Source: Euglena gracilis (Eukaryota). From it: 38,821 bases of DNA. Numbering within the stretch: position 1 is the stretch's first letter; the number at the start of each line of letters is the position of its first letter. The stretch covers positions 18,196,589-18,235,409 of the forward strand of contig CP154954.1 in assembly GCA_039621445.1 (NCBI GenBank). Reading direction: 5' to 3'. Both the position numbers and the translations under genes were made by a program. The notes beneath the pieces are model-generated. The model ran no database searches and had not been told where the DNA came from. It saw only the letters and a program-made list of their open reading frames with translations. Of this stretch, positions 1,012 through 32,919 are shown one piece after another.

Positions 1012-1176
1012 TGATACGAAAATTGTGTCCAGAACGCCGGTTCGGGCGTGAAGCCGTGTTCCAGAACGAACGGGCGGCAGCCCGAACCGGCGTTCTGGAA
1101 CACGGCTTCACGCCCGAACCGGCGTTCTGGACACAGTTGTTGAAACCGTGTATTAGGGGCTCTGGCTTCCCGCCCG
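1012..1176 (+). mobile_element. Hairpin end of family P element (copy P1)
   Basis: TTTC (1008-1011), then TGATACGAA, then a palindrome AATTGTGTCC...GGACACAGTT (1021-1138), then TTGAAACCGTG. Homologous to 5897-6090. Far end not identified. Confidence 0.75.
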
Positions 1177-1229
1177 TTCATGGACGCATGGTCATTTGTG
1201 TTGTGACTCCTCTATGCAGATTTCTTCTA

Positions 1230-3885: not shown

Positions 3886-3984
3886 TCTACCGCCTTGCGC
3901 CCAACGCCGCCAACTGCGGCGTTGCCCGTCGACTTGTCCAACGCTCCGAACCCCTTCCGCCCCCAGCCGGGATTTTTGGGCTTC

Positions 3985-4225: not shown

Positions 4226-4231
4226 TTTCTT

Positions 4232-5692: not shown

Positions 5693-6479
5693 AAGCCCCT
5701 TTTTTCGACCCCCCCCCCTTAGTGACCCCCCCCTAAGTGACCCTTCGGGGGGGTCCTGGCCGAGACAAGATGGGGGTCATTTGGGGGGGGGGTAATTGTA
5801 ATTCCCGTTCCTTTCCGAGTGTCCATTGTTTGACATATCGCATGATGGCTGAGAAGTGAAAACTTTGGAGGGGTTCAAGTTACAAGAGCTGGTATCTATA
5901 TCGAGAATTGTGTCCCAAACGCCAGTTCGGATGTGAAACCTGTGCCTGGGACGTCGGTTCCGGGGTTACCGCCCGGTAGCCCGGTAGCCCGAACCGGCGT
6001 CCCAGGCACATGTTTCACGCCCGAACCGGCGTCTGGGACACAGTTTTTGAAACCGTGGCTAGTGGGCTCCGGTTTCATGCCCGAACCGGCGGCTGAGGAA
6101 TCACGGCCAATTTCGCCCAAAATACCCATGTTTGGGGCAGTTTTGGGCTACTTTGGCCCAAATGGGCCGCCGGTCAAAAATGGCAGATTACACACTTATG
6201 AAGCCATGTTACCCATTAATCGAAAGCTCTTCTCAAGGGCTTTCGACAGATGGCCATAGGATTCGGCGGCTCCCGGACCTGGCCTGGGGGGGGGGGTAGT
6301 GGGCCGACCCTAGGGTCGGCCCAATACGACCCCAGGGTCGCTAGGGTCGCTAAAGTCGTTAAGGTCGACCCCCCCCCACAGGATGTGGAGTCTAGGGTCG
6401 GCCCACCCCACGACCTCGCCCGCCCCAAAAAAAATGTGGAGAATATTTTTTACCCATTTGAACAGGAATTGAAGTTGGA

Positions 6480-7654
6480 CTTGATGTCGTTTTGGGGGGC
6501 AAGTCCCTTGTGTTTTCAAATTGTTTTGGGGGGCAAATCCCTTGTGTTGTCCAACCGATCGAGCTCCCCAAAATAATAAAATCCCTTGTGTCTCCAAGTT
6601 GTTTTGGGGGGCAAGTCCCTTGTGTTTTCAAATCGTTTTGGGGGGCAAATCCCTTGTGTTGTCCAACTGATCGAGGGCCCGAAAATAGTAAAATCCCTTG
6701 TGTCTCCAAGTGCCTTGTGTTCAAGTTGTTTCGGGAGGCAAATCCCTTGTATTGTTCGACCGATCGAGGGCCCCAAAAAAATAAAATCCCTTGTGTCTCC
6801 AAGTCGTTTTGGGGGGCAAGTCCCTTGTTTTTTCAAATCGTTTTGTGGGCAAAATCCCTTGTGTTTCCAACTGATCGAGGGCCCCAAAATAATAAAATCC
6901 CTTGTGTCTCCAAGTCGTTTTGGGGGGCAAGTCCCTTGTGTTTTCAAATCGTTTTGGGGGGCAAATCCCTTGTGTTGTCCAACTGATCGAGGGCCCCAAA
7001 ATAATAAAATCCCTTGTGTCTCCAAGTCGTTTTGGGGGGCAAGTCCCTTGTGTTTCCAAGTTGTTTTGGGGGGCAAATCCCTTGTGTTGTTCAACCGATC
7101 GAGCTCCCCAAAATAATAAAATCCCTTGTGTCTCCAAGTCGTTTTGGGGGGCAAGTCCCTTGTGTTTTCAAATCGTTTTGTGGGGCAAATCCCTCGTGTT
7201 TCCAACTGATCGAGGGCCCCAAAATAATAAAATCCCTTGTGTCTCCAAGTCGTTTTGGGGGGCAAGTCCCTTGTGTTTTCAAATCGTTTTGGGGGGCAAA
7301 TCCCTTGTGTTGTCCAACTGATCGAGGGCCCGAAAATAGTAAAATCCCTTGTGTCTCCAAGTCGGTTTGGGGGGCAAGTCCCTGGTGTTTCCAAGTTGTT
7401 TTGGGGGGCAAATCCCTTGTGTTGTTCAACCGATCGAGCTCCCCAAAATAATAAAATCCCTTGTGTCTCCAAGTGCCTTGTGTTTTCAAGTCGTTTTGGG
7501 GGGCAAATCCCTTGTGTTGTCCAACTGATCGAGGGCCCCAAAATAATAAAATCCCTTGTGTCTCCAAGTGGTTTTGGGGGGCAAATCCCTTGTGTTTCCA
7601 AGTTGTTTTGGGGGGCAAATCCCTTGTGTTGTTCAACCGATCGAGGGCCCCAAA
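6480..7654 (+). repeat. Satellite: AAATCCCTTGTG subunits in a ~110-bp higher-order repeat
   Basis: CCCAAAATAATAAAATCCCTTGTGTCTCCAAGT recurs about every 110 bp. The array resumes at 10979-11253 and 11928-12222 after two insertions. Confidence 0.95.
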
Positions 7655-8019
7655 GGAGGCGGACGGACGGACGGACGGACGGCTGGTGAAAAAAGCGAAG
7701 GTCCGGACGGACGGCTGACCTTGTGGGCTTGGTCCAGACGGCTGAAGAAAATGCACTTGGTCCAGCTAGCCGGCTAGCCGGCTGGCCGGCTGGCCGGCCC
7801 GAGTCTTTGTAAGCGCAGGCGTCTCAGTGCACGCGACTTTGGAGCTGGGGTGCTGCTAGCCTGGCCACATCTGGCTAGCCGCGGCCAGCCGCGGCTGGCT
7901 GGCAAAAAAAAAGGAGGAGGTCTGGCCAGCCAAGATTTGGTGTTCTGTCCCGAAACTTTCTTCCGCTTCATTTTGTTGGACTAGTCCTTTTTTTCTTTTG
8001 ATATTGAGAAGTGTATCGT

Positions 8020-8090
8020 GCACACAGTGTAGTTGGTGCAGCATGCAGTTCGGAACTGTCAGGTCGCGGGTTCAAACCCCGCTGTGTGCA
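8020..8090 (+). pseudogene. tRNA-like sequence, possible Pro(CGG) origin, inside element A3
   Basis: Acceptor stem GCACACA/TGTGTGC+A, T arm GCGGG-TTCAAAC-CCCGC, anticodon loop TTCGGAA closed by GCAG/CTGT; irregular D arm. Confidence 0.65.
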
Positions 8091-8592
8091 ACAAGTTTTC
8101 CTCACTTGAAACCGCCATCTACTGTCATTTTTTTGAAGAAATTATGAATCACCCTCACGCAAAAAAATGCTTGCATTCCCAATTCTTCTCCTTCAGTGTC
8201 ACAATGCCGTTTCGGGTGGAAGCGGTGTGGGATAGTTATGATGAAAGTACAGGGTACTGAAATGAAGTGAAAATACAGGAACTTATTGCTTTATGGAAAG
8301 AGGGCCAACATCACCACATGCAGGCCACTCAGGCCTTTGCTCTGAACAAATCCACATTCGATCGAGCAGAGGCCTGCCTGCAACACGGTGACAGGCCCTT
8401 GGTGGGTCTACTTGTTTTCTGCTTGGTACTTGCTACTTGCATCACAAGTTTCAAGTCTGAAGACAGATTTCACAGACATTTTGTCCTTAGATGCTGGTTT
8501 TCTTCTGAAACTTCAATTTTTATTTCTTGCGTTCTTTATTTGCTGTTCGACAAATGTTGTTGGAAACCAAAAAATTGGGGGAGAAGTTTTTC

Positions 8593-10100
8593 TATACACA
8601 AATTGTGGCTGAGCCCAGATTTGAGCCTGAAAACGTGTTCAGCCAGGGGCCCCCGAAGGGGGCCCCTGAACACGTTTTCAGGCTGAAATCTGGGCTCAGC
8701 CACAATTTGTTTAAAAACGTTTTCAGAGCCCGCCAAATGCCTGCCCTGAAATTCGTGGTCATGATTTACGCAAGGGGTCAAAAACGCCAATTTGTGAAAT
8801 TCGGACCCAAAAAACGGCGCCCTCACTGAAAACGTGCCTGAACCCGGATGCCTTCACTGAAAACGTGTCATTGACACAAATGCCCTCACTGAAAACGTGC
8901 CTGAACCCGGATGCCTTCACTGAAAACGTGTCATTGCCACAAATGCCCTCACTGAAAACGTGTCACCCCCCCCTTTTTTTTCTTTTTTTCTTTTTTCCCG
9001 CAGCCCTGCCAATATGGCCAAACGCACGGCAAACTTTGTGAATGGTCTTTTGCCACCTCCCCCTAGGACGGACCCCCTTCATGGCACCTTGCTGGCACAG
9101 GGCAACACAAAGAAAAAGTCCGGCTCCGTAGGTGCAGAGCTTGCTGCTGTTGCCAACTGTTTGGAGTTCGCCAAACTGTGTCAACATCGGCAAGCCTCTT
9201 ATCCTGAGCTGGATGCTTTCTTGTTGCCTGGACGGGATGGGAGCTGGAACCCAGCCTGTTGTTCGATGAGGCGAGCGTCATCGAACAGTGTGTGGTCCCC
9301 TGACCAACCCCCTGTGCCTCGTGCTGTGTCCCGACTGCCAATAAAACACGAGAAATGTGGTTTTTGTGGTGTTGCCATTCCCAAAAATCCAAATTGTGTG
9401 GAGCTGAACAAAGTTGTCTGTGACGCCAAACAAACAAAGTTGTCTGTGAACAAAGTTGTCTGTGATTGGCATATCATTTTCATTGCCAAGATTTGGCAAA
9501 AGAGCCAAAGTATGGCTCTTTTGTGTCAAGAAACTGTGTTCGGGCCAAGACTTAGGGGGAGCCCAGGGGCGGGGACCGCGACGCCGAAGGCGCCGCGGTC
9601 GCCCCTGGCCCCCCCTAAAACCTTGGCCCAAAACACTGTTCTTGTTTGAAACCGTGTTTTGGGCGAAGATTTAAGACTTTTAAAGTCTCGAAATCGGCCC
9701 AAACACGGTTTCTTTGTGTAAAGCGTGTCGTGTGCCGTGATGTCCGCCACTCTGTTTCGTTGTGCTCCAAGGCAACCTAGCCTTCTGTTGTGTTGTAGAG
9801 TGCCCCCGACCCGCCTCACTCGTTGAGGACCACCCGGCCTCGCAACCACACGCCGATTTTTCATGATAGTGTTTTTTGCTTTTTACTCAGGGTTGCCACA
9901 GATGCCCTCACTGAAAACGTGCCTGAACCCGGATGCCTTCACTGAAAACGTGTCATTGACACAAATGCCCTCATTGAAAACGTGCCTGAACCCGGATGCC
10001 TTCACTGAAAACGTGTCATTGCCACAACTGCCCTCATTGAAAACGTGTTCATGACCACGAATTTCAGGGCAGGCATTTGGCGGGCTGAACACGTTTTTAA
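8593..10100 (+). mobile_element. Family B hairpin/asymmetric-IR element (copy B1)
   Basis: TTTC|TATACACA, then a palindrome at 8601-8707. IR TTAAAAACGT...GTGGTCATGA (8711-8764) pairs with 10049-10100. Internal ATGCCCTCACTGAAAACGTG tandem repeats at 8820-8960 and 9895-10048. Confidence 0.8.
9013..9297 (+). other. Coding-like fragment carried in family B (unknown protein)
   Basis: Reads MAKRTANFVNGLLPPPP / LLAQGNTKKKSGSVGAELA..ANCLEFAKLCQHRQASYPELD. Copies at 31866-32075 (+) and ~30640-30760 (-). Confidence 0.4.
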
Positions 10101-11253
10101 TCTGGCAAACGGCCCAAAATTTTGCATTTCACATTTTTTGCGATGTCATGGTTTTTTTTTTGGGCCGGATGTGGTGGCCAGTTTTGGGCCAGATGTTCTA
10201 TCCAGTTTTGGGCTAGATGTGGTGGCCAGTTTTGGGCCACAGGATTCTCTCAGGAAGGAGTTGTTTGGGTGCCATTCTCTTGGAAAGGGGGGGCAGAAAA
10301 GCGTTTTGTTTCCGTTTTTTTTTTTTGGCAAAATATGTGTTGTTCAACGAGAAAAATGTCAGTAAAATTTGACTGTGCCAAAAGTTTGTTTACTTTATTG
10401 ACCTTCGTTTATTTCACCTCCTCAAAAATATGAGTTTTTAGGACGGAAAATTTTGAGGTTTTTTGTGAAAAAAGTTTTTTTCCATCAAAAATCACGTGTT
10501 TTTGGGTTTTATTTTTCAAAAAACTTTTCTGGGCAAAATCCCCGTTTTCCCGAAAACGGTGAAAATGTTGTGGTGGGTGTGGGGGGGGGGGTCGACTTAC
10601 CCCCCCTTCCGGTTCTTCCGGCGCAGTCTTTTGGTGCTGCCGTCATATGTTGAAGAAATGTTCATCCACCCGAAAAATAAATAGCATTGGACTCCGTGCA
10701 GGCGCACTCACGGCAATGCTGGAGCGTGCACAACAGGAAAAACCGAAGGGCAGGGACAATTTCTTGATTTGACGCGACGAGTGGAGGGAAGACGTGACTG
10801 CTTTTCGGAAGGAAGGAAATTTTTTTTTTGGTCCGGCCGGCTGGCAAGAAAAACATTGGTCCGGCTTGACGGACGGCTGGCGAAAAAATGCTTCGTCCGG
10901 ACGGACGGCTGGGCGTCCACCATTGGTCCGGCTGAAGAGGTCCGGACGGCTCGGACGGCTAGCCGGCCAGCCGCCCCCAAAATAATAAAATCCCTTGTGT
11001 CTCCAAGTCGTTTTGGGGGGCAAGTCCCTTGTGTTTCCAAGTTGTTTTGGGGGGCAAATCCCTTGTGTTGTTCAACCGATTGAGGGCCCCAAAATAATAA
11101 AATCCCTTGTGTCTCCAAGTCGTTTTGGGGGGCAAGTCCCTGGTGTTTCCAAGTCGTTTTGGGGGGCAAATTGTTGTCCAACTGATCGAGGGCCCAAAAA
11201 TAATAAAACCCCTTGTGTCTCCAAGTCGTTTTGGGGGGCAAATCCCTTGTGTT

Positions 11254-11927
11254 CAGGGTTGACGTTTTTTTTGTTTTTTTAAAAAAAAACAAAAAAACAT
11301 GTTTTTTTTAAAAAAAACGCAAAAAAAAACATGTTTATTTTTGAAAAAGCAAAAATTGACCTTTTTCCTTGCGAAATGACCAATTTTTTGAAGAAAATTT
11401 TTCGCGGGTAGTTCGGGTCACGGGGGGGGGTCACGGGGGGGTCACAGGGGGGGGGGGTCACGAGGGGGGGTCACATTTTCGGTGGCCAGATTAGAAATCA
11501 CCGAAAACGAATTTTTGGGGGAAAATCCTTTTTAGGCTCCAAAATAGGAATCCCCCAAACGAAAATTAGGAAATCTACCGGAATATTTTGGCATCACCGG
11601 CCAAGTTTTTCAGAAAAAATGGCCGAAACGGGTCTTAGGTCGGGTTGGGGGAGGGGGGTCAAGGGGGGAACACCCCCTGTGAAGTTTTTTTTTTCAAATG
11701 TGTGAAAGTATTTCCAAATCTGTGTTTTCTGGTGCGAAAAATCATGCTTTCAACCCAAAAAAATGAATGTTGTAGAGATAAAAAATGCACTTTTTCCCAA
11801 AAAAAACATTGCAAAAATTTTTTCCCCCAAACCCTCCATGATGTTTTTTTTGTTTTTTTTAAAAAAAACATATTTTTTTAAAAAAACATGTTTTTTTTGT
11901 TTCAAAAAAAACAAGCCGTCAACCTTG
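11254..11927. mobile_element. hAT-like MITE (family G) inserted in the satellite
   Basis: TIR CAGGGTTGACG / CGTCAACCTTG; perfect 8-bp TSD CTTGTGTT (11246-11253, 11928-11935). Contains a GGGTCACG-type insert at ~11405-11678. Second copy begins at 23228. Confidence 0.9.
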
Positions 11928-13640
11928 CTTGTGTTTCCAAGTTGTTTTGGGGGGCAAATCCCTTGTGTTGTTCAACCGATCCAAGGCCCCAAAATAATAA
12001 AATCCCTTGTGTCTCCAAGTCGTTTTGGGGGGCAAATCCCTTGTGGTTCCAAAACGTTTTGAGGGGTAAATCCGTTGTGTTGTTCAATTGATCGAGGGCC
12101 CAAAAATAATAAAATCCCTTGTGTCTCCAAGTCGTTTTGGGGGGCAAGTCCCTTGTGTTTTCAAATCGTTTTGGGGGGCAAATCCCTTGTGTTGCTCAAC
12201 TGTTCAAGGGGCAAATCCCTTATGTCATGTAGTGATTTTGGGGTGTATTTTGGCATCAGTAATCAATATTAATTTTTCTTAGTTTTGTTTTCTTTGTATT
12301 TGAAGGCCTAAAACATCAAAAAAAATTCGAATTTTTTTTGATAGGGGGGCGAGGTCGTGGGGTGGGCCGACCCTAGGGTCGACCTAGGGTCGGCCCACGA
12401 CCCTAGGATGGGCGACCCTGGGGTCGGCCCACTGCGACCCTAGCGACCTTAGCGACTTTAGCGACCTTAGCGACCCTAGGGCCGTATTGGGCCGACCCTG
12501 GGGTCGGCCCACTACCCCCCCCCCAGGCCAGATCTACCCCCCGGATTCGGCCATAATGCAGCGCTTATTTTCAGCGATTGTGTATTCCAAAATTTGACAT
12601 CCTAATTTGTTAAATCCCACAGCTCAGGTTGCATATTGCATATCAAACGAAAGGTCTCACCAACACCTTTCGCTTGGTACCCACAGAACTCAGCCAGATT
12701 GCAGATTGCAAAGCGCCCTCAAAATCAGCGATCGCATTTTTCCGCATTTTTCGGACCCCATTTGCATATCTGAAATTCCACTTTTCAGCTGCCATGTTGC
12801 CCATCGATCGAAAGCTCTTCTCGAGGGCTTTCAGCAGATGGCCTTAGATTTCTGCCATGCTTTGTGGTATTCTATTTCAGAAAGTCTCCAAAATTGGCCA
12901 AAAGGAAATTTTCCTCAAAACCCCCAAATTTTTGGGCCAAGTCCACCCAAAAACTGCTCAAATGTGATTCCCACCTATCCACGAACCCTTTTGGACACTT
13001 TTTGGCACTTTTTATTTTGGGTCCCCCAGACGCCCCCCCCAAGAACATTTATCAATTCCCTATTTCCCTCCCCCCCCTTAATTCCGCCTCCAATATTTCT
13101 CATATTTCCCCCCTATATATATTTTCAATCGCCCGAACCGAGAAAAAAACACAATTCCCTCCCCGCAAAAAAACAAATAAAACCCGAACGGAAAAGAGGA
13201 GCATAAAACCCCGAGCCAAATTTAATTTATCAACCGAAATTAATTTTTAATTTATAATTATTTAATATAAATATCAACATTTAAAATCAAAAAAAAAACC
13301 AGGCGGTCAGACACCGGTTCGGCACAGAAATTTCCCGCCCGAACCGGCGTCCCAGACGCCGGTTCGGGCATGAAACCGGAGCCCCCAGACACGGTTTCAA
13401 GTGTTTATCAAGTGCATGTTATTATGTCATTGAGATCAAGTTTCAACTTAAACCGTTTTTGAACCCGGCGTTTGAGACGCCGGGTTCAGGACAGAACCGG
13501 CGTCCCCCCCCCCATGGGTTTTCCAGATGCTGGTTCTGTCCTAAAACCCGGCGTTATGAACGCCGGTTCTGTCCAAAACCCGGCGTCCGGTTTGGGACTG
13601 TTTTTTGTGCAAAAAAGTGTGCCAATGTGACCCCAGAAAC

Positions 13641-16397: not shown

Positions 16398-17079
16398 GGG
16401 GGCGGACGGACGGACGGACGGACGGCTGGTGAAAAAAGCGAAGGTCCGGACGGACGGTTGACCTTGTGGGCTTGGTCCAGACGGCTGAAGAAAATGCACT
16501 TGGTCCAGCTAGCCGGCCGGGTCTTTGGAACCGCAGGCGTAAACCACAATCGCGTAGATCGCCAACCGGAAGTAACGGTCCAGATCTGGGTTGCACACAA
16601 CATGTCAGATCTACAGTACGATGTCCGCTGAGCCGCCCCGTACTGCAAGGTTCGTATCAGAGGTGATGCACGGGCCTATTTTTGTGGTATTTATCATTCA
16701 ACCTCAAGATGATTATTTCCAAGTGGCTACAGTGACCTCCTTGCGTACTCAACTCATCCTCCGAGAATGATATCACCCTTCATGGTATAGCGGTCGTGTG
16801 GTTAGCGTGTGACCGGTAGATCGCGGGTTCGAATCCCGCCGGGGGGCAGCTTCGTGTTTTTCCTGATTTGACGCGACGAGTAGAGGGAAGCTGTGACTGC
16901 TTTTCGGAAAGGAAGGAAATTTTTTTTTTTGGTCCGGCCGGCCGGCAAGACAGACATTGGTCCGGCTTGACGGACGGCTGGCGAAAAAATGCTTCGTCCG
17001 GACGGACGGCTGGGCGTCCAGCATTGGTCCAGCTGAAGAGGTCCGGACGGCTCGGACGGCTAGCCGGCCAGCCGCCCCC
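16398..17079 (+). mobile_element. Family A element (copy A2)
   Basis: Near-identical to A1; 3-bp TSD ACA (16395-16397, 17080-17082). Removal rejoins the retrotransposon frame (ALEISV-AADQKRD). Confidence 0.9.
16776..16847 (+). pseudogene. tRNA-like sequence inside element A2
   Basis: Copy of 5390-5461 with substitutions in the 5' acceptor strand (CCCTTCA). Confidence 0.65.
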
Positions 17080-17359
17080 ACAGAAATCTCGAGAGCATGG
17101 CGGATCCCCCGGGCCTGCAGCTGGGCACCCAGAAAGTGTTGAACCGGTGGTGGCGCTCCCACAACTTGTTCTTGTGGCAGCACAGAGCGTGATCCCCAAA
17201 GGGATCCACCACCTGCCCGCAACCCAAGGGGCAGGGTGAACCTGCCAGGCTCAACGGGATGATGCAACCCCAGATGCCACTTCATCATCAGGCGAAACGA
17301 TGCACCGTCCACGGCAAATCCGGCAGCCAGAGGGGCGAGCCCCGATCCAGCTCGAGCAC

Positions 17360-17596
17360 GGGGGTGGGCCGGGTCACGGGGGGGGTCACGGGGGGGGGGC
17401 ACGGGGGGGGGCACGGGGGGGATATGGCCTCCTCTTCAATGTTTCCGGCTTCCGCGACATTTGAAAAAAAATACTGAAAGCAGTTGTGATTGAAGCACGT
17501 GCGTTTGCGGACCCCAAAATCGGGGGGTGTTCAAATCCGGGTCACGGGGGGGTCACGGGGGGGGGGGTCACGGGGGGTCACGGGGACGACACCCCC
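17360..17596. mobile_element. Short GGGTCACG-repeat element (family H-like)
   Basis: Ends GGGGGTG / CACCCCC; interrupts retrotransposon coding between QSSSI and SSWIG; no clear TSD. Confidence 0.6.
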
Positions 17597-17927: not shown

Positions 17928-18046
17928 TAGGGAGATTTCATTGTCAAAAAACGGAAGGGACCAATTAATCGTTAATCGTCCGAGACACCCCGATTAATCG
18001 CGATTAATCGTTCTCCAGCCCGAAACAATTAATTGGCACAACCCTA
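17928..18046. mobile_element. Tiny hAT-like MITE with ATTAATCG repeats
   Basis: Ends TAGGG / CCCTA; degenerate duplication around CCAGC. Removal gives GIRLALDSVLPARLS in the retrotransposon frame. Confidence 0.55.
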
Positions 18047-19059
18047 CCAGCCGGATACCGAAACCACCCAAACGCAGAGGCAGGGCAGCCTGGGCCCATT
18101 GTGTGTCGGTGACAGAGCAATCCAAAATCTGCTGGAAAGTGGCCCGGAGGCATCCGTCCGCACGGGCCAGCAAGTGGGGAAAGGGGAGGCAGTGAGCACT
18201 ACGCAACAAAGAACTGAACTTACAGGCGTCGAAACAGAAGTGGAGTAAGGACAGTTGGACTTGGGGGTCTTGCACGGAGCCCAGCAGTGCTGTTGCTTGC
18301 TCATGCTTGGAGATACCTCTAATTGCTGGCGAACAAAGGACACATCCGAAGGGTGATGGATCGGGACGCCCAACACCGAGACCCGGAGTCGAGGGTGAAG
18401 GGAACGACAAAGGCCCCACGCAAGACGGAATCATCATGCAGAGAGGGGATATGCCGAACCCCTGGGCCCCACACGGTAGTCTTGGTTAGATTCAGAGAAC
18501 ACCCCAGGCGGCCCAGGCCGATCTGGAGGTGTGCCAGGGCGCGATCAGCAGTTGGGACGTCTGACAAGATGGACCCGTCGTCCAAGTACCAGAAGGAATT
18601 GCCCCGTCCTGGTGCCGAAAGCAGGGTGTCGTGAATGGCTAGCGAGAACAGGAGAGGCACGAGGGGTGCTCCCTGCTGCCCACCTTCCGTGCTCTAGATC
18701 TCGTTGTCCCCAACGAATAAACGGGATGGCTGCAGGGAAAGGCGGCACCAGTGCAGCAAGTGCGGGGCCTGGCGCTTGACGGCATCAATGATGGCAGCCC
18801 ACTTTACAGAATTGAAGGCATTCCGTATGTCGACCTGGAGTACACCCAGTCAGGGTCGTCCCTGCGCTCAGATGTTGCAGCGAGATCCCAATTTGCTCGC
18901 AGGCGCTTTTGCCTCCAAAGGCGGACTGTAACGGGCGCAGGTTGGCGCCCACGTCCTCTGTCTCGGGAAGAGCCATGAGGCATTTTTCCACAAAGGTCTC
19001 CCCGACGGCAACCGGGCGTACCCCGTCGTCCTTCTTCCGCAAAGGGAAGAGGTTGGCCG

Positions 19060-19847
19060 CAGGGGTGTAGAAGTAATTTTTTCTCGGGGGGGGGGGGGCG
19101 AGATCCTCGACAAGACTGAAAATATCCATTTTTCCCTCGCCGCCCGAAGGGCGGCGAAATGGTGGTGCTTTTTTGAAAGATGGCATTGAATGTTACAAAA
19201 AAAAATGTGGCAATTTTTGGCATTATGACACTGATCCATCACAACTTGGAAGCTTTTAAGTCACCCGAAGGGCGGCAAAACGGTAGTGCTTTTTTGAAAG
19301 ATGGCATTGAATGTTACAAAAAAAGCCGCCATTTTTACATTATGCCACCAATCCATCACAATTTGGAAGAGCCGCCCAACAAGCGGCAAGAGTGACGCCT
19401 TTTTGTGTTTCAGGATTTGTGTCTTAGGATTTGCGTGGAACAAAAAAAATCTATTGCCGCCCGAAGGGCGGCTGACGGTAATGCAATTTTCCAAAACCTT
19501 CCCCAAAAAGACTTGTCAACTTGCCAAACTTGTCAACAAAAATTGTGTGCTCTTGAAAAAAAAGAGCTTTGGAAGCGAAGTCAAGATGCATGTTTTCCTG
19601 TTTGCCGAGATTTTCGCCCCCTCCGACCCATGAATTCAGGACGTCTTTGGCCGCACAAAGGGCGGCGAGACGGTAGTGATGTCCAACAGCAAAAACACCC
19701 TAAAGTTCAATGAAAAGTTGAATTCTCGGTGTGAGAAATTGAAAAAACCACAAACAATGTGAATCACACACTTTTCAAAAAAAATTTCTTCCCAAAATGT
19801 CGGGGGGGGGCGGCCGCCCCCCCCGACCCCCCACTTCTACACCTATG
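19060..19847. mobile_element. hAT-like non-autonomous element (family C, copy 2)
   Basis: TIR CAGGGGTGTAGAAGT / ACTTCTACACCTATG; perfect 8-bp TSD GTTGGCCG (19052-19059, 19848-19855). Confidence 0.92.
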
Positions 19848-22800
19848 GTTGGCCGAGCATAGCCATTCCGCTGCCGTGGGGTGCAGAGACCCCTGGGTGC
19901 ACTGTTGGACAAGGTCGTCCAAGGCCTACAGCAACGGAGTGGGTTCCCACTGTCACCGTCCCGTAACAGTTCGGCAAGGTATGCGGGTCGCAGGCCAGAC
20001 GGCCCCGGTGCACTCCCCGGAGGGAACCCGAGGGCAACTTTACGAAGTGCTGCCAACCGGTCGTCGGCTGGGGAGTTGACGTAGCAATAGTGGGTGGAAG
20101 CTAACTGTTGGTCATTGTCGGACCAGGAGAAGCCCGCCCCGACGGGGTGTAGTCCGCGCAGGGCGGCAAGGACGTCCTCGGACCGGGAGTCATGGACCCC
20201 CTTACTCAGAAGGCATTTGGCTGCCTTGGAAAAGGCACCGGGTTTTCCTCCCTCCCTCACCCTCCACGCCGAACCTCCGGACCAACACAAAAAACCGCTC
20301 CTCCCCCTCTCCCACAACCTTGAGCTTTTCTCAAATGTCTTCTCGCGCATATTGTATACATACCCCTAACCACCACTAAACCTACCACCACTCATTTCAC
20401 AGCTTCCTTGGGAGCCTTTCCCCAGACAGTAGAGGAGAAAGCCATGCGACTGACCTGTTTGATCACGTGGGCAACAGTGGCCCTTGACACTCAAGGTGAC
20501 ATGTCTTCCAGTTTAGTAAGTTTAGTAAGGCGAACATGCATGCATTCGGCCCACCACCTTGTGAGGAGTGACCGGAGGTGGGATTGGCCAAAGAGGCAAG
20601 AGTTGTTATCCATGTTGCCAGTGGTTTGCTATCAAGTGCACAACCTTGAAAATTTCATGGCCACCGATGGATGTCTGTTGAAAAGAGCTTTCGATCGAGA
20701 TTGGTACCCTCACCCCCCCCCTCAAAGTGGCCACCCTCCAGGCACCACAGGACCCCAAAACGGCCCCTGGGGGGGGGGGGGGTGCGGGGGGGGGGGTCAA
20801 TTTTTGGGCTTCGGCGCCAAAAGAAATGGCCACTTCAAGGGGGGTAAACCAAAGTTGCCAAAAATTATCCACACTGAGGGGGAGACACTTTGAGGGGGGT
20901 GAGGGTGCCCACAACGTTGCACACAACCAGTGAGAGATATGCTCGCGATCGTCGGATCAAACAGAAACAGAATCGAAATTTGTGGTCATTTCCGGCACTG
21001 CTTTATTTGAGAAACACAATGAACAATACAAAAGCGATTTTTTCCCTTCAAACCGACGACCAAAAGGTTCTTTGGGGCCAGACATGAGAAACCATTGAAA
21101 AAGTGCCCAAAATTTTTTGCACGTCCCAAAAATGACAAGGGAAAATCCTAACAATTTTTAAAAAAATTCACCAAACTCTCGCTGGCTTTTTCTGTTTCTT
21201 TCAAAAAGCTTTTTTTTGTTTTTGATTTTTTTAATGCGGCTTAGATTGCCATTACGATGCCCCCATGTTACCGCACGTTCCTGCCCTGTTTCTGCCCTCT
21301 CAGCCTACTTCCCCCTCACGACACTTAATTCTACCCTCTCTTCGCCCTTCCAGGTTTCCAGGTTTCCTGGGAACCGGATGACACCCTCTGCCTTATCCTC
21401 ATCCATGGGGTCTCCCAATCGGTGCATAGCCTCCCCCCCGTACACTTCAAATCCAGTAGGCTGCGCCACTGGTCGGTGGATTCGGTTCGCCCCACCGCCG
21501 TTTCGTCCGGTGAAACCCCTGATATAATCGCGATAATTTTCGCGAAGTCGTGTCATCATCACCCGCCTGTGGATGAATTGAAATCCTGGAATTTGTGAGA
21601 GTTGTTCGAAAAAAATAGGGCACATTGGACATGAGAATCAGAGGCGGGTCCCACCACAGCCACCAAATGAAGCCAAAGCAAAGACGTCAATATTGATGTT
21701 AAATAATGTGCAAGGTGGGATTGTGTGCTTTGGGGATTCTGAGGAAATCCTCATAAAGGCTTCTGGGAGTCATTTAAATCTTGTTTTTCAACGATCATGC
21801 ACTTTACATCCCAGCAGTGCATTTTCCAATTGACCATGCACTGGGCAAGGGCAGCTGTCCAGAAACCCGGGGAGGGGTCTGGGGAGGATGGTTGGTGGGT
21901 CCGCCCCCACCCCTTTTCCGCACAAATCCCAAAAAAATTTTGGACCCCAAAATGACTTCCCTTGACTTGAGTCCCCCCCCCAGATTCCCCCCCCCCCCAG
22001 ATTGGCTGCTCGTTTTTCGGAAATTCAGCGTGCCAAATTGGCCGTTATTGGGGGAAATAGGTTAGGGTTCGGAGTTTCATGAAGTTTTAGCCTTATTTTT
22101 GGATTTGGCAAAATCTTAAAGACCCCCCCCCCTCAATAACCTGGGTGGCGGGGTGTCAGGTTATTGAACCAACTTTTGGCCCGCCCGCCGACCCTTCGGC
22201 CAAATTTGCCATCCTGGAGGGGGGGGGGTCGGCACGCCGTGGCGAGGTGTCTGGCTAGGGGGGGGAAGGGGGGGGTTTGGCGTGGCGAGGGGGTCCTGGA
22301 GGGGGGTGCGCGGGGGTTTGCCAAGAAAATTTTCTTTGGCGGGCCTGAATCTTTTTCCCCCTCTTCTGGTCTGCCGCCTTTGGAGCCCAGGTATTGGGGG
22401 CCCCCCCTGTTCACTTCTGAACTGAACTGGACATGTTGACTTCCCGGAGGGGGGGGAGGGGGGGGGAGGGGGGGTCCGACACCGAAGGTGCCGAAAAAGC
22501 CCTTTTCGGTGTTCGCCTGCTGTTCCGGTTTTCGGTTTTTTCCCAAAGTGAACAGGTGCATCCAGGTACACAGTAGGGTGGCGACTGAAATTTCCGGCCC
22601 CTGAAATTTCACAAAATTTCACAATTTTTAACTTTTCTTTCAGACCACAAGCCAATAGCAGGGTGTTGACTGAAATTTCCGGCCCCTGAAATTTCACGAA
22701 ATTTCACAATTTTTTACTTTTCTTTCCGACCACTTTTCACGAATGTCACCACCCTACTACACGGGGGGGGGACCCCCTGTTCACTTCCGAAGTGAACTGA

Positions 22801-24490: not shown

Positions 24491-25180
24491 GGGGGGGGGG
24501 GGATGGGGTCCAAAATCCCAAAAGTTACCGCCTGATCTCCTGGGGGTGAGGGCATCCCTGGGCCCCCCTGGGGGGGGGGCAGGCTGAGTCGGGCATTTTT
24601 GGGACTTGGGGGCCTATAAAATTTGCTTAAATTTTAAGACCTTTGCACACATGATTGCATTGAGGAGTGTCCATTTTGACCAGGAAGAAGTGGGGGGGGG
24701 GGGCTGTGGACCCCATGTGGATGACGGCAACAGGTCTGGTTAGTTCACCGTTTTTAGGGCTGGGGGTTGAAATTTTGACCACGTTCTGTCAGACGAAGCC
24801 TGCCGGCCTCGAAGGGATTTGCCTTTAACCCCTCTCCCCCAAAGTGTCCCCCCCCCCATTGGCCATTGGCCAGTGGCCATTTTGGATTCCCATAGTTCCT
24901 GGAGGGTGCTCACTTTGAGGGAGTGAGGTTCTTTTTTTTGGCCTTGCCACCTGTCGTCATGACCTATGGAGTCCCAGATTGGGGGGATTATTTGGTACTT
25001 GTTCGCTATCGACCCTCCCTTTTCTGCACACAAATCGTGGCTGAGCCCAGATTTCAGCTTGAAAACGTGTTCCGCAGGGGGGCCCCCGAAGGGGGCCCCC
25101 TGAACACGTTTTCAGGCTGAAATCTGGGCTCAGCCACAATTTGGTTAAAAACGTGTTCAGAGCCCGCCAAATGCCTGCCT

Positions 25181-26610
25181 TGTAACCGTGAATAGAGGCC
25201 CGGCGCCTGCCCTGTTTTTCGTGGGTGTGAACACGAAAAACAGGGCATATTTTCAATTCACGAAAATATGCCCTGTTTTTCGTGAATACCTATTCACGAA
25301 AAACAGGGCATATTTTCGTGAATAGGAATTTTAACTGAAATGAAACCCAAAAACCTGTCAATCCCATCAATCGAAAGCTCTTCTCAAGGGCTTTTTACAG
25401 ATGGCCACAGGAATCAGCAATACTGCACACAGCGCTTATTTTCAGCGATCGTGTATTCCAAATTTTGACATCCTAATTTGTGAAATCCCACACCTGAGGT
25501 GCCATACAGCATATCAATTGAAAGCTTTCCCCATGAGCTTTCGTTTGGTACCCTCAGAACTCAGCCACACTGCACAGCGCCCTAAAAATTGCCAATCGCA
25601 ATGTTCCGACCCTTTTCGCAAATTCCAAAACCCACTGTTCACCTGCCATGTTGCCCCTTGATCGATAGCCCTTCTCGAGGGCTTTCAGCAGATGGCCTTA
25701 GATTTCAGCCGTGCTGCATGGTACTCCATTTCAGAAATTCGCCAAATTTGACCAAATGGAAAGTGTTGCACAAAATCCCCCAATTTCTGACCAAATACCC
25801 CCAAAAACTGCTCAGATATGATTATATGGTTGCCACATGTCTAAAACCCATTTTGGACACTTTTTGGCACTTTTCATTTTGGGTCCCCTGGACGCAAAAT
25901 GGACCAATGAACCGGCATCCAATGGACCAGCATTGGACGCCGGTTCGGGCGTGAAGCCAGAGCCCCAATACACAGTTTTGGGGGTTGTGGCAACATTCGG
26001 TCCATGGTGTTTGCGGCTTTCTTCGCCATTTTTGCAAGAACAGACTGAGGAACAACACAAGCAATGTGGATAAAATACCGACCCTCTGTGATCCGTTAGG
26101 CTCTAAAGAGAATATCGGCGTCAGGCCAAGCATTGTGGGGGCCTTTGGGGGGGACCGTGCGCCTTCGGCGCCCAGTCCCCCCCCCCAAAGTGCCCCCCAA
26201 TTACTTGGCCCAACGCCCATTTCTCGTTTTCCAGGACCAGCGGTGCCATGTGGGTATGATTCGGGTCATTTGGACACCATTTCTACAGACCTGTTTCTAT
26301 TCACAAAAAACAGGGCATATTTTCAATTCACGAAAATATGCCCTGTTTTTTGTGAATAGATATTCACGAAAAACAGGGCATATTTTTGTGAATAGGATTT
26401 TTGGGTGAAAAATGACAAAAAAATGCCCGAAAACCTGGCGTGAAGCACACCCACGAAAAACAGGGCAGGCGCCGGGCCTTTCTATTCACGGTTACAGAAA
26501 AATTGTGGGCTATAACCCGTATTCAGGCCGTATAACGGGTCAAGGGCGCCTGCGGCGCCCTTGACCCGTTATACGGCCTGAATACGGGTTATGCCCACAA
26601 TTTTTATATA
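25181..26610 (-). mobile_element. Family E hairpin/asymmetric-IR element
   Basis: IR TGTAACCGTGAATAGA...GGGTG (25181-25227) pairs with 26448-26496, followed by a near-perfect palindrome at 26501-26602 and TTTATATA|GAAA. Inserted in B's conserved GCCCT^GAAATTC without duplication. Confidence 0.85.
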
Positions 26611-26887
26611 GAAATTCTGATCATGATTCACGCCAAGGGAAAAAAAACGCGAAAATGTGAAATTCGGACCGAAAAAAGAGCGCCATAATGGAAAACATGC
26701 CTTGCCACAGATGCCCTACCATGCCCCCCCCCATATAAGACCAGGTTTTGAATAGTGCTTCGCTCTTAATAAGCGCTCACCCACCCTTGACACCCCCATA
26801 TAAACCGGCCCACTCCATGGAGCTCTGTCGACTGAAATGCAAAGGTTTTGTGCCCGAAACAGGGCGCCGGGGGGGGGGTGAAGAAAC

Positions 26888-27660
26888 ACTCATTTTTGGC
26901 TCAAAATACACTTTTTCCGGGTCTGGGGAGCCAAAAAAACAGCGTTTTGTTGTGTTTTTTTTTGACCCGAAAATGACCGAAAGTGAGTGAGTGGGTTGAC
27001 AGCCCAGAACGGGGCGCTGGCGGGTCGAAAAACGCTCATTTTTCGGCCCAAAAACAGTTTTTCTGGGTCCGGTAGACCAAGAAAAAACATCGTTTCGGGC
27101 AAAAAGATTTTCTCCGATTTTTTCCGACTTGTTTGACCCGAAAATGACCCAAAGTCAATGGGTTGGCAGCCCAAAACAGGGCGCTGGCGGGTCGAAAACC
27201 GCCCATTTTCGGCCCAAAAACAGTTTTTCTGGGTTCAGGAGGCCAAAAAACATCGTTTCGGGCCAAAAAAAATTTCTCGATTTTTTTTCGACTTTTTTTG
27301 ACCCGGTTTTGACCCAAAGTCAATGGGTTGGCAGCCCAAAACGGGGCGGCGGGTCGAAAAACGCTCATTTTCGGCTCAAAAACAGTTTTTCTGGGTTCAG
27401 GAGGCCAAAAAACACCGTTCTGGGCAAAATTTTTTTTCGATTTTTTTTCGACTTTTTTGACCCATGATGCCCTTCCTGGGTCATGATGCGCATCATAGGT
27501 CATGATGGGCATCATGGCCATCACGGGTCATGATGGCCATGATGGTCGAAAAACGCCCATTTTCGGCTCGAAAACCCTTTTTCCGGGTCCGGGAGGCCAA
27601 AAAGCATGGTTTTGGGTAAAAAATTTTTCGATATTTTTCGCCTTTTTTGGCCGAAAGTCC
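26888..27660 (+). repeat. ~150-170 bp diverged tandem repeat with a CATGATG-rich insert (27462-27545)
   Basis: GGGTCGAAAAACGCTCATTTTCGGCCCAAAAACAGTTTTTCTGGGT recurs at ~27020, 27190, 27350 and 27545. Confidence 0.8.
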
Positions 27661-27832
27661 ACCAGTGGAAAAAGTGTACAAAATGGCCAAAATCGGCCGA
27701 AAAACGGCCGTATCTCGGGCTACGCGAACAGTTGTGGGAAAATCAAAATACCAGTGGATGGGGCGTTCCAACAAGGGCTTCAAATTTGGTCTCTGGACAT
27801 TTCCTTTGATTTTGCTTCATTTTGGAGATATT

Positions 27833-30265
27833 TTAAAAACGTGTTCAGCCCGCCAAATGCCTGCCCTGAAATTCGTGGTCATGAACACGTTTTCCATGAG
27901 GGCATCTGTGGCAATGACACGTTTTCCATTAAGGCATCTGTGGTCAGGCACGTTTTCCATTAAGGCATCTGTGGCAATGACACGTTTTCCATTAGGGCAT
28001 CTGTGGCAATGGCATGTTTTCCATTAGGGCATCTGTGGCAACGGCACGTTTTCCATTAGGGCATCTGTGGCAATCACGTGTCGTCCGAAATCGTCCGAAA
28101 ATGCATTTTGCGAAATCGATCGACGATCGCGAGCGGATCTCTGGCTGTGAAAGTTGTTCAGGAACAAACTCACCCCTCGATCGAAAACTCTTTTCATCAG
28201 ACGACTAGTGGTGACGACCAAATTCAGCCACGCCGCTTGGTACTCTTACCTCCGCCCCCCCCCGAGCTGCCCCCCCCCCCCCCCCGAGCTATTCCCATAG
28301 GGGGGACGGGAATAGCTCACTGTCATAGCACTTTTTATAAAGAACTTCCCAAAAAAGTGCTCAAAAATCGACGTTTTTGGGACAGCCATAGAACAGGAAA
28401 GGTCTCCCCCCTTAGTTCTTAGTCTATGTCCTTAGTCCAAAGAGGACACAAATTGTTTGGTTTCAGCAAATCCATTCAGAAGGGGGAAAATACACAAGGC
28501 AATGCATTTTAGGTCCACATTGAGGGGAAACGGGCTGGCCCAGCAGTCCAACTGCAAAGAAACATCGGACACTTTTTCAGATTTGGGGAGTTGGATCCAA
28601 TGTGCACAACGTAAAGCTATCTAACCGGTATAAAATGAACTCTGGAACGGTTCAAGAATCGAGGGGTGGTACCTTTGCCGGCCTGGAACCCTTGTGTTAT
28701 CGTTGGTGCCGGCCATCGTCATATGGGTGGTGTTCATGGATCTAATGACGTCGTCCGTGGACCTGCTGCGCAGCACCACCCACGACTCGATGGACGTCAT
28801 GGCACAAAATATTCAGCAGTTGCTGATGTCCAGGTTGAGGTCTTTTTGCTCTTTGCAACTTTTGGTGCATGGCTTGATCCCCCCGCGGGGGGGGGGGGTT
28901 GGCTTGTACTCTGGAGCAGTGGTTTACCCCTTTTTTTGATGTTTAATTTGCCAAATGATGGAGGAAGGGAAGGAAGGGAGGAAGGGAATGAAGTGAATGC
29001 CAAAATGTCATTTTGGAGGAATTTGGGGGGCTTTGTACCTCTTGATAACCAACCACCCAAGTTGCGGTGTTCAAGAGTGAATTTGAATTTGAACCCACAG
29101 CAGTGCGGGAAAAAAAGAACTTCCCAAATTTTGTCCAACATTGGAGAAAGGGGGTTGAGCGAAAAGCTGGGGAACCCCCAACTCATACATTTACTTCCAA
29201 CCCCTTTCCCACCCCCTCCCCCAATGGATTTCATTCTTGAGGTTCTGGAGGAATTTGACTGCTTGGCATCCAGATTCTGAAATGGAAATCATTCAAGCAA
29301 AAAGACAATTGGAACCTGAAACCTGTTGGTGTATCAAGCGATTGAAAAGTTTGACACCCACATCACGGAGGGCGAGAGGGAGTTTTCAAAAATCACTTTT
29401 TGACAAATGTGCTTAAAAATGACCATTTTTTGCGAACATCCAAAAAAAAGTTGCCAAAAATGACCCCCTTGGGGTTGCCCGAGGGTCGGGTATGGGAATA
29501 GCTCGGGTCCCCCCCCCCCCCCCAAGCTGTCCCGGGGACGGGAGTAGCTCGGGGGGGGGTATGGTATTTCCTGTCACTGGGAAATCCTAATTTCACAATT
29601 CTTGTACCTCCCTGGACCCCAGATGCCCTCGATTCGAAGACAAAAATCGTTTCTGTATGGTTTGTTAAGCATTTTAAACCAAGCAGCACCAAAAACCACC
29701 ACAAATTTCGACTAAGATTCTGGCCGATCCGACGATTGTGAGCGTATCTCGGGCTTCGTGCAACGTTAGGGTACCAAGTTACCCCTCGATCGAAAGCTCT
29801 TTTCAACAGACGGCCAGCGGTGGTCATCAGATTTTTCCACGCTTCACGGTGCTCACAAAGTTTGCCGTGCGTTTAGGTATGGGGGGAGGGGTAACACGTT
29901 TTCCATTAGGGCATCTGTGGCAATGACACGTTTTCCATTAAGGCATCTGTGGTCAGGCACGTTTTCCATTAAGGCATCTGTGGCAATGACACATCTTCCA
30001 TTAAGGCATCTGTGGTCAGGCACGTTTTCCATTAGGGCGCCGTTTTTTGGGTCTGAATTTCATATTTTCGCGTTTTTGACCCCTTGCGTGACTCATGACC
30101 ATGAATTTCAGGGCAGGCATTTGGCGGGCTCTGAACACGTTTTTAAACAAATTGTGGTTGAGCCCAGATTTCAGCCTGAAAACGTGTTCAGGGGGCCCCC
30201 TTCAGGAGCCCCCTCCTGAACACGTTTTCAGGCTGAAATCTGGGCTCAGCCACAATTTGTGTGTA
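27833..30265 (-). mobile_element. Family B element (copy B2), reverse orientation
   Basis: IR 27833-27884 pairs with ~30094-30146; palindrome 30150-30257, then TGTGTGTA|GAAA. CACGTTTTCCATTA(A/G)GGCATCTGTGG tandem repeats lie inside both ends. Confidence 0.8.
28686..28833 (+). CDS. Isolated exon-like fragment: transmembrane helix plus amphipathic helix (possible receptor/sensor N-terminal segment)
   Basis: GTLVLSLVPAIVIWVVFMDLMTSSVDLLRSTTHDSMDVMAQNIQQLLMS; homopolymer-free, GC3-rich, ends at AG|GTTGAG (donor-like). No clear canonical acceptor upstream. Confidence 0.5.
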
Positions 30266-32919
30266 GAAAATTGACATTTTTTGGCCGAAATGGCAGAGTC
30301 CAAAGGGGGGGGGGGCTTATCCAGGGGGGGGGGCGGGCCAATCCTACCCAGTTTGGACCCCTTCGCGCGTGAATAACTCGGGCCTGGCGGGGAGTTGGGG
30401 GTCAAACCCAGGTTTTCAGAAAATTCAGAAACTAGAAATCCAGTCGCTCGCGACTGAAATTTTTTTTTTCCGGAACGGGGCCGGGATCATGGTGATAATC
30501 CGCCGGTTCCCGAGGTGGCCCCGAGGGGGGGGGGTCGGGGGGGGGGGGTCCCCCGGTGGTAAGCTTCGCTCTTACCCTAAAGGGATAAGAGCTCAGCGAC
30601 CCCCCATATAAGACCCCCTGGGATTTTGGCTCCCGAGGGAGGGTCAACCTTCGGCTTCTCAGCATCTTGCTGGTACACCGCAAGAGCAGCCAGGAACACT
30701 TCCGTCTTAGGGGGAGGTGGCAAAAGGCCATTCACAAAGTTTGCCGTGCGTTTGGCCATGGGGGGAGGGCTGTGCGGGAAAAAAGGGGGGTAACACGTTT
30801 TCCATTGGAGATCAGGCGGTGAACTTTGGGTTTTTCGGGCGGGACCCCCCCCCACCCCCCCTCTTCATTGGAAATACATGGACGAACTTCACCGGTGGAG
30901 CTTTGGCAGGGGGGGGGGGGGGGGGGCCCCGAGGACAGTTTTTTTTTTTGCATTTTTTTGCACTTTTTGCTGTACTGTCTCAACACAGGGGGGGGGGAGG
31001 GTCCTGGTAAACTGCCAACCCCCCCTCAAAAATTGGCCAAAACCCGGCGCCGGAAAAAAATTTTAGGGCCTTTTTTTTGGTCTAAAAAGGCCATTTTTGG
31101 TGACAAAATGTTCATCTGTCTCGGGGGGGTCGGCACTAGGACTAGGGGGGGGATCCCAAAAATACAAACTGTACAGGGGGGGGGAGGGGGGGGTCCCCAA
31201 AAAACCCCAACTGTACTGCCGTCGCCCCGGTGAACTTCACCGGTGAACTTCACCGGTGAAGTTCACCGGTGAGGTTTCTCCATGAAATTCCTTTAGGGGC
31301 GGGGCCCCCAACCCCCCCCCCCCACCCCTCTAACCTCGATTAGGGCATCTGTGGCACTGACAAGTTTTCCATCCGTGCATCTGTTGCAATGACATGTTAT
31401 CCAGGGGTGGGGGTGGTGGTTGTGGATCCCTCCGGTGAGAGTTCACCGGTGAAGAGTCACCGGGCTGGAGGGGGGGGTACTTTCGGCGGTGAAGTTCACC
31501 GGTGAAGTTCACCGGTGAACTTCACCGTTTTGATGGTTGGGGGTGAAATTTTCACTGGTACAATTTTGCTCCTTTCCTCTCAAAATGGTCATTTTGAGGT
31601 TGATGCTTCATGGAATTTTATCGAAATTTCCGAAAACTTGCCCAAAGTGCCATTTTTGGCCATTTTTGGCCAAAAAAGTACTCTCTTGGTGAACTTCACT
31701 GGTGAAATTCACCGATGGGTTAGGCAGAGGGGGGGGGGAGGGGGTCCGGGACCCCCCCGGTGAACTTTCAAACGGTGAACTTCACCATAGGGGGGGGGGA
31801 GGGGAGGTCAAAATGACCAAAGTCTACTGCCTGATCTCCCATGCCCCCCCCCCCATATAAGACCGCACCTTGCTGGCACAGGGCAACACGAAGAAAAAGT
31901 CTGGCTCCGTAGGTGCAGAGCTTGCTGTTGCCAACTGTTTGGAGTTCGCCAAACTGTGTCAACATCGGCAAGCATCTTATCCTGAGCTGGATGATTTCTT
32001 TGTTGCCTTGACGAGATGGGAGCTGGAACCCAGCCTGTTGTTCGATGAGGCGAGCGTCATTGAACAATGTGTGGCTCAATGTGAGCAGCAGTCGGGAACT
32101 ATGTTCGTTTCAGGGAATCGTTCACAACCTCTTTTCATACATACGTGAATGCCCTCGCTCGGGCATTCCGCAAAACCACGACCGAGGGAGTTGTGTTGCC
32201 TTCTGCAGAGTGTTTACAGATGCCCTAATGGAAAACGTGTTCATGATCACGAATTTCAGGGCAGGCATTTGGCGGGCTGAACACATTTTTAACAAGTCGG
32301 TTGCTTTGAGTCCAGAAACCAAACACCCCATAAAGCCGCGTTTCTGGACTCAAGGCAGACCGACTTGTGGGGGGGGGGGGAAAGGTCGAAGCGAACAAGT
32401 GCCGATTTTTCAGCTGTTTTCTTGGAGGGTGCCAGATTCTAAAATTTGGTTGAAAATGGGGGGAGATCGGGATGGCGCTGTATTGCTGTCTGTTTTCCCC
32501 GTTCAGGGTGGCATTTCCTGTCCTTTCTTGACCCCTGAAACCGTGTATGGGGGCTCCACCCAAACCGGTGTCCCAGACACCGGTTCGGGTGGGGCGAGGT
32601 ACGCGGGGGACGTCCAGGCGATTGGCTTCTGTGATCGTTGCGGCTGTGGCACAACAGTGCTTGCCTAGCATTTCCTCCACTCATTCATGCATTCATGTCC
32701 CTGTTCTTTGGAAATGACTCCCAGCCAGGGACACAGACCCGGGCGGGAAATTTCTGCTCGAGTCTGTGCCCCAGACACAGGCTCGGCCGTGAGTCTAGAG
32801 ACTCAAAAAATGTGTCCCAGACGCTGGTTCAGGTGTGAAGGCGTGGACACATTAATTGATCAATTGGGTTGATTGATTCATTGATTAACTGATTGAGTTT
32901 CACCTTCTCAGGGCATCAA

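Follow-up and report, generated by a model that had tools for sequence, protein, structure and literature searches.

Non-autonomous mobile elements with giant terminal hairpins in Euglena gracilis, possibly an oversized variant of HLE2 transposons

Helitron2 elements are described as carrying asymmetric terminal inverted repeats of 8-15 bp, with the 3' repeat just upstream of a hairpin that lies 20-30 bp from the end, and as inserting after TTTT without duplication (Bao and Jurka 2013, PMC3627910). The same paper gives the insertion site of HLE2 elements as T|T or TTTT|T/C, the T-rich tetranucleotide being on the side without the long tail. According to PMC4067079, the HLE2 stem-loop is a palindrome of 5-10 bp situated 8-35 bp from the end, and non-autonomous Helentrons combine subterminal repeats with a 3' stem-loop and central tandem repeats; the HELIANO paper (PMC11417382) applies the name 'HLE2-reverse' to a form in which the stem-loop precedes the left repeat. 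In Helraiser, the hairpin is reported to act as a terminator (Grabundzija et al. 2018, PMC5876387). Published HLE1 elements have 5'-TC ... CTRR-3' ends, an A|T target, and no terminal repeats. Autonomous HLE2 copies encode RepHel, which unites a Y2 HUH Rep and a Pif1-type helicase, with or without an endonuclease. Among other systems, IS608 is described as recognizing its cleavage sites and its target through base pairs formed with short stretches close to the hairpin foot (PMC3201880, PMC5934647), IS91 as inserting beside a tetranucleotide (PMC10288648), and elements moved by tyrosine or serine recombinases as being without terminal inverted repeats (PMC3627910).

The window analyzed here, i.e., the whole stretch of DNA, comprises 38,821 nt of Euglena gracilis (CP154954.1, 18,196,589-18,235,409), is repeat-rich and has a G+C content of about 50%. 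The part from 25000 to 27000 is present in at least 20 sequencing runs of one organism, belonging to at least 17 studies. The original prediction had placed six ends of mobile elements in this window, and we located all six at the positions given there, reading as described. On the plus strand, the P1 end reads TTTC|TGATACGAA-AATTGTG, P2 TATC|TATATCGAG-AATTGTG, B1 TTTC|TATACACA-AATTGTG, and B3 TTTC|TGCACACA-AATCGTG; on the minus strand, E reads TTTC|TATATAAA-AATTGTG and B2 TTTC|TACACACA-AATTGTG. The exact pattern TTTCTN7-8AATTGTG has four matches in the window compared with 0.04 expected, and none of 100 shuffled windows contained four or more; P2, with TATC, and B3, with AATCGTG, are one-letter variants of it. 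The tetranucleotide adjoins the hairpin side at every one of the six ends, as TTTC in five cases and as TATC in one.

Scanning the 38.8 kb for long, near-perfect hairpins with loops of up to 40 nt revealed eight large hairpins, six of which are the element ends while two lie inside E; the same scan found no hairpin in any of five shuffled windows. At the six ends, the near-perfect hairpins span 108-134 nt, in agreement with the palindromes of 100-140 bp that had been predicted. They start 5-9 nt from the element end and terminate in CACA(A/G)TT, and the inverted repeat follows 2-7 nt farther on. The plan of the elements is thus a leader of 8-9 nt, a large hairpin, and an arm of about 50 nt, with the opposite arm at the other terminus. 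In all five complete elements the terminal inverted repeats are asymmetric, one of them being set back behind the stem-loop. The termini are inverted and not direct, and the resemblance of the flank to the 3' end is confined to TTTC. The prediction that the partner of each inverted repeat is the opposite terminus was borne out at five of the six ends, but not for P1, whose partner terminus does not lie within the window.

P1 is represented by its 5' end (1012..1180, plus strand), which consists of a 9-nt leader, a 112-nt hairpin at 1024-1135, and an arm that starts TTGAAACCGTG..., and which is preceded by host TTTC at 1008-1011. P2 is a complete element of 7.5 kb (5897..13398, plus strand) behind host TATC at 5893-5896. 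Its leader and its 134-nt hairpin (5909-6042) are followed by the left arm at 6049-6099, and the right arm at 13350-13398 ends CACGGTTTC; the two arms match over 51 nt at 90%. P2 carries 112-bp tandem arrays, a tRNA-like repeat, and the nested element B1. The arrays (6454-7732, 10975-11253, and 11875-12295) are satellite-like, their 112-bp unit being made from a 34-nt subrepeat. An old, degenerate, and short P copy, P3, occupies 32535..32870 on the minus strand, with a P-type 3' end at 32535, a flank starting with AG, and a collapsed hairpin remnant near 32800-32870. Finally, a mini pair of P-type arm cores (TTGAAACCGTG... / ...CACGGTTTC) is found at 9645-9715 inside B1, about 70 nt apart and without a hairpin; this is a P copy with an internal deletion or else a small palindrome unconnected with P.

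Several other repeats accompany the P copies. Rfam matched the window only at two tRNA-like sequences, both outside the element ends (5390-5461 and 8018-8090, plus strand, 32-35 bits), within a dispersed repeat that is present three times. The units of this repeat, which probably represents a tRNA-derived SINE, lie at 4986-5418, 7653-7799, and 16396-16804, one of them inside P2. A G-run motif (GGGTCAC followed by 7-12 G) recurs in short arrays at 245-333, 11404-11477, and 17343-17588.

The B family is represented by three complete elements. B1 (8593..10098, plus strand; 1.5 kb) is nested in P2 behind host TTTC at 8589-8592, has its hairpin at 8598-8710 and its arms at 8713-8764 and 10047-10098, the right one ending CACGTTTTT, and shows an arm match of 94% over 52 nt. 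It has two subterminal 32/63-nt arrays (8819-8965 and 9893-10048), which run in the same direction at both ends. B3 (25025..32290, plus strand) is complete but interrupted. Host TTTC at 25021-25024 precedes its hairpin at 25031-25143, and its left arm (25147-25180) is split by E and resumes at 26611; with the right arm at 32239-32290 it forms a pair of 52 nt and 90%. Nested in B3 are E and B2, the latter a complete element of 2.43 kb on the minus strand (27835..30265). B2 has its hairpin at 30147-30260 and its left and right arms at 30093-30144 and 27835-27886 (52 nt, 94%), and its host TTTC is the complement of 30266-30269. E, within the left arm of B3, measures 1.43 kb (25182..26610, minus strand). 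It comprises a leader, a 108-nt hairpin at 26498-26605, a left arm at 26446-26495, and a right arm at 25182-25229 that ends CACGGTTAC(A), the arm pair being near-perfect over about 50 nt; its host TTTC is the complement of 26611-26614. The internal palindromes of E are composed of the arm motif.

The interior of B3 shows further repeats. Contigs of four DNA runs skip 1318 nt of B2 (28247-29564) by joining 28246 to 29565, and joints within this segment connect 28381 to 29384, 1-4 additional letters being placed in the gap. These joints suggest a further nested element whose inverted ends consist of G/C runs and which has a low-copy insert of about 1 kb (depth about 150-7000). A 162-nt tandem repeat of 3.1 copies at 26958-27463 has the top summed contig depth of the stretch examined for depth, 4-8 million, and represents an extremely abundant family. 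A hairpin that measures about 75 nt (32293-32367; arms 32293-32319 and 32340-32367, 93%) begins right at the 3' flank of B3 and stands outside the P, B, and E families.

According to the original prediction, P, B, and E were three unrelated families that form a coherent group of mobile elements and share a terminal grammar. The second part is supported, whereas the first is not supported in this form: E contains P-type 3' sequence, and the hairpin foot and the repeat core are common to the families. The P-type fragment in E (25430..25978, plus strand, antisense to E) shares 79% identity over 485 nt with the 3' part of P2 (12559-13033) and includes a P-type 3' terminus at 25936-25978 without a hairpin end. 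The hairpin itself co-varies with the family. The elements reach a summed contig depth of 10^5-10^6, compared with about 100-300 on unique flanks; this is not a copy number, but indicates very high abundance. With such a 10^3-10^4-fold excess in four independent DNA runs, the elements are a major genome component.

Two insertion events could be compared with uninterrupted sites. For E, the other five copies of the host arm (B1 left and right, B2 left and right, B3 right) are intact and read CCCTGAAATTC / ...GCCTGCCCTGAAATTC, whereas the left arm of B3 reads ...GCCTGCCT, followed by E and GAAATTC. The arm at the E site has ...GCCTGCC-T where the five other copies have ...GCCTGCC-CT. The prediction that E inserted beside GAAA without duplication therefore stood up against five intact arms, exact within one letter. 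For B2, contigs with the joint 27834->30266 were found in all four DNA runs (8, 4, 12, and 5 contigs), and loose contig ends before 30266 read ...GATATTTT / ...GGAGATATTTT. The contigs that skip B2 most likely stem from other host-repeat copies that lack B2. The empty site reads ...TTTT|GAAA... and shows no duplication. At this joint the hairpin and the repeat-bounded body are absent together in four runs, and the palindrome thus belongs with the body. Target duplication, denied by the prediction, was nil in both of the events that can be checked. No further paralogous empty sites were found within the window; one paralogue of the B2 host repeat lies at 37702-37736, but it has diverged too far to settle a boundary of 2 nt.

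The B2 joint sets the 3' end at ...CACGTTTTT and assigns AA to the flank. By likeness to B2, P2 would end ...CACGGTTTC and E ...CACGGTTAC, and the flank AG that follows ...GGTTTC in P3 agrees with AA being in the flank. The inverted-repeat match reaches across 1-2 of the disputed A/AA letters, which fit either the element or the flank and leave the 3' boundary uncertain by 1-2 nt. Two other readings of the ends were considered and rejected: a TTAA-type duplication for B, as the P and E ends place the same letters in the inverted repeat, and TTTC as part of the element, as it is already present in both empty sites (E and B2). Insertion is orientation-specific and always beside TTTC/TATC, at six of six ends. 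The flank letter at the non-hairpin end corresponds to T in the HLE2 orientation, again at six of six ends. The elements themselves terminate in TTTT, TTTC, or TTAC, each of which differs from the target TTTC by no more than one letter. In P, the six letters before the insertion (GGTTTC, GGTATC) match the 3' end of P itself (GGTTTC) and are complementary to the first letters of the left arm.

In each hairpin, the outer half duplicates the core of the inverted-repeat arm. The B 9-mer AAAACGTGT occurs 25 times in the window compared with 0.69 expected, and 23 of the 25 occurrences lie in B copies, in both hairpin arms, both repeat arms, and the subterminal arrays. The hairpins have DNA folding energies of -60 to -71 kcal/mol. 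A simulated 3'-to-5' junction, made up of far arm, leader, hairpin, and near arm, folds into one continuous stem of -118 to -140 kcal/mol, compared with -34 to -52 for shuffles, and the junction sits in a small bulge. The hairpins of P1 and P2 share 82% mean column identity and keep their pairing in both; among 28 shared pairs, a small number, 24 are unchanged, three are changed on both sides, and one is a wobble. Either selection or copying that regenerates palindromes would be expected to give this picture.

A Pfam-A search through six frames of the whole window, with stops as X and in 18 chunk-frames, gave a single match, RVT_1 (E = 2.7e-9, about 18469-18849, minus strand), which lies outside the elements and shows that the six-frame approach works. 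It belongs to a decayed LINE-like retroelement with in-frame stops at about 17994-20365 (minus strand). A LINE-like ORF had only weak eukaryote matches in the protein atlas. The scan of the window contained no Helitron_like_N, PIF1, Rep, Y1, DDE, or recombinase domain; Pfam assigned none of the 10 long ORFs of the window to a family, and a regular-expression search of its six frames for the helicase Walker A motif gave no plausible match. Since the six-frame scan yields only the RVT_1 fragment, the copies in the window are all non-autonomous. In summary, these are real and mobile elements that are non-autonomous, occur in very high abundance, and share one common terminal design.

Elsewhere, an exact 31-mer of the B hairpin had no match in metagenome contigs. 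A general pattern of the grammar, which misses E-type hairpins (gap 88 nt), matched at least 119 metagenome loci, 43 in viral contigs, and at least 120 in prokaryote genomes. Among the matches listed, none from these three sources has a comparable hairpin apart from one bacterial palindrome, and the best ungapped pairing among them was 0.56 (metagenome), 0.49 (viral), and 0.55 (prokaryote), compared with 0.81-0.83 for the copies in the window. The one exception, L176:1560-1750 on an Acidobacteriaceae MAG contig, is a symmetric intergenic palindrome of about 190 nt with a pairing of 0.73 and the pattern on both strands; it was set aside and is probably an unrelated bacterial repeat. The literature yielded no element with this grammar, with the proviso that the supplementary terminal tables of PMC3627910, PMC4067079, and PMC11417382 may include HLE2 families whose hairpins are larger.

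The reading we prefer, at roughly even odds, is that P, B, and E are non-autonomous members of one group that moves by a single-strand, rolling-circle-type mechanism with an HUH nuclease, most likely an oversized variant of HLE2. In such a mechanism, the enzyme would bind the double-stranded hairpin, whose foot AATTGTG/CACAATT is common to the families and whose outer half copies the arm duplex. One strand would be nicked at a fixed distance of 8-9 nt outside the foot, after TTTC, and peeled off as far as the opposite arm. The far arm could then pair with the near arm and lengthen the hairpin into a single long stem, so that the element's own TTTC-like 3' end (TTTT, TTTC, TTAC) would enter the same small bulge and be cut. 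The ends would be joined, and the strand would be pasted behind TTTC of single-stranded target DNA. The structure of the ends is what suggests this fit to a single-strand mechanism, and two insertion events underlie the check for duplication.

The same structure could belong to a separate, undescribed eukaryotic group of HUH single-strand elements outside the Helitron lineage, with hairpin binding like that of IS200/IS605 or IS91 and a cut after the flank tetranucleotide, which we regard as unlikely. It would account for the fixed flank tetranucleotide at a constant 8-9 nt from the hairpin foot, for a 3' end that differs from the target by one letter, and for the six pre-insertion letters of P that match the 3' end and complement the start of the left arm. 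There are precedents in the pairing-based site reading described for IS608 (PMC3201880, PMC5934647) and the tetranucleotide-adjacent insertion described for IS91 (PMC10288648), and the polarity of the target is unlike that given for Helitron2 (PMC3627910). The giant hairpin might then mimic paired ends and position a Rep-type nuclease, and TTTC might be read in the bulge, partly through arm pairing as in IS608, an extension that is equally unlikely. However, a simple pairing rule is weakened by B and E, where the target is still TTTC despite differing 3' ends and arms. In IS200/IS605 elements, each of the two ends has a hairpin and long terminal repeats are absent, and to our knowledge the IS200/IS605 and IS91 families are restricted to prokaryotes. 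Replitrons, which are eukaryotic HUH elements, have short direct terminal repeats and, as far as the published description goes, no such hairpin. Nor did the six-frame scan of the window find an enzyme of this kind.

A tyrosine or serine recombinase of the Crypton-like kind, acting through double-stranded circles with the TTTC-like letters as crossover core and the palindrome as binding sites, is an improbable driver. It would be in keeping with orientation-specific insertion without duplication and with the core-like similarity between the target TTTC and the 3' end TTTT/TTTC/TTAC, and in a circle both arms would flank the crossover symmetrically. Yet such elements are described as being without terminal inverted repeats (PMC3627910). 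The crossover would also fall not in the centre but at one foot of a palindrome longer than 100 nt, and no frame of the window contains a recombinase domain. Cut-and-paste transposition by a DDE enzyme of the no-duplication kind, with the hairpin as a passenger module at one end, is very improbable: DDE elements typically have long terminal inverted repeats accompanied by repeated subterminal motifs, and some are known that leave no duplication, but here the hairpin lies outside the repeat-bounded part and is nevertheless mobilized with the body and co-varies with the family, an asymmetric target borders the hairpin side at six of six ends, and no DDE domain was found in any frame of the window.

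If the elements are an HLE2 variant, a known terminal structure has been stretched about ten-fold, and a hairpin that copies the paired ends would offer a testable idea of how the enzyme finds its stop or start point. If the driver is not a Helitron-type protein, they would represent a new group of eukaryotic transposons. Judging by the rules set out in PMC11417382, annotation tools tuned to short repeats, short stem-loops, and T-T sites probably miss such elements. Thousands of near-perfect palindromes, each longer than 100 nt, are also of importance for the stability of the genome and for its assembly.

Compared with systems outside the Helitrons, the elements share with IS200/IS605, as described for IS608, insertion 3' of a fixed tetranucleotide that is retained in one flank, a hairpin a few nt inside, lack of duplication, strict orientation, and a 3' end with its own cleavage-like tetranucleotide. 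They differ in having one giant hairpin and 50-nt repeats, whereas both ends of IS608 carry small imperfect hairpins and terminal inverted repeats are lacking; IS608 is moreover prokaryotic and about 1-2 kb long with tnpA, whereas the elements studied here are eukaryotic. With IS91/ISCR, as published, they have in common a conserved flank tetranucleotide at one specific end, orientation-specific insertion, and no duplication, but IS91/ISCR are prokaryotic, their terminal structures differ, and no helicase or Rep gene was found in this window. Like Replitrons, the eukaryotic Y1 Rep transposons, they are eukaryotic, probably HUH-driven, and mostly without target duplication; the inverted repeat pair and giant hairpin contrast with the short direct terminal repeats and palindromes of at most 11 bp described for Replitrons. 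Crypton-type elements have no terminal inverted repeats and a recombinase, in contrast to the 50-nt repeats and the lack of a recombinase domain in the window. Canonical Helitrons (HLE1), as described, differ in their ends, which here are T(A/G)... and ...TTT(T/C)/TTAC, and in the long repeats and the target TTTC|A found here.

The closest resemblance is to HLE2 (Helitron2/Helentron) as it has been published, including its non-autonomous derivatives such as HINE/DINE-1. As in HLE2, one terminal repeat stands at one extreme, and its partner is set back and followed by a stem-loop and a short tail; the stem-loop-first form corresponds to the described 'HLE2-reverse' (FoHeli3-5, proto-Helentron). 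Insertion leaves no target duplication, is orientation-specific, and has T flanking the non-hairpin end, internal tandem repeats are present in B and P, and non-autonomous copies far outnumber coding copies; the satellite-like arrays of P2 recall the tandem repeats of non-autonomous Helentrons. The outer half of the hairpin that duplicates the repeat core, by contrast, is unlike HLE2. The flank at the hairpin end is G(AAA), i.e., TTTC on the other strand, at six of six ends, and not T as described for HLE2, and the T-rich tetranucleotide published for Helitron2 is at the end opposite to that of the hairpin-side TTTC here. The arms of about 50 nt exceed the published 8-16 nt about four-fold. 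The hairpins of 108-134 nt exceed the published palindromes of 5-10 bp about ten-fold, which agrees with the original prediction that known Helitron2/Helentron hairpins are much shorter; in its position, starting 5-9 nt from the end, the hairpin is compatible with the published stem-loop. That prediction had also suggested a possibly undescribed class. The layout, however, is that of published HLE2 or 'HLE2-reverse' elements, and it is the scale and the target that stand out instead.
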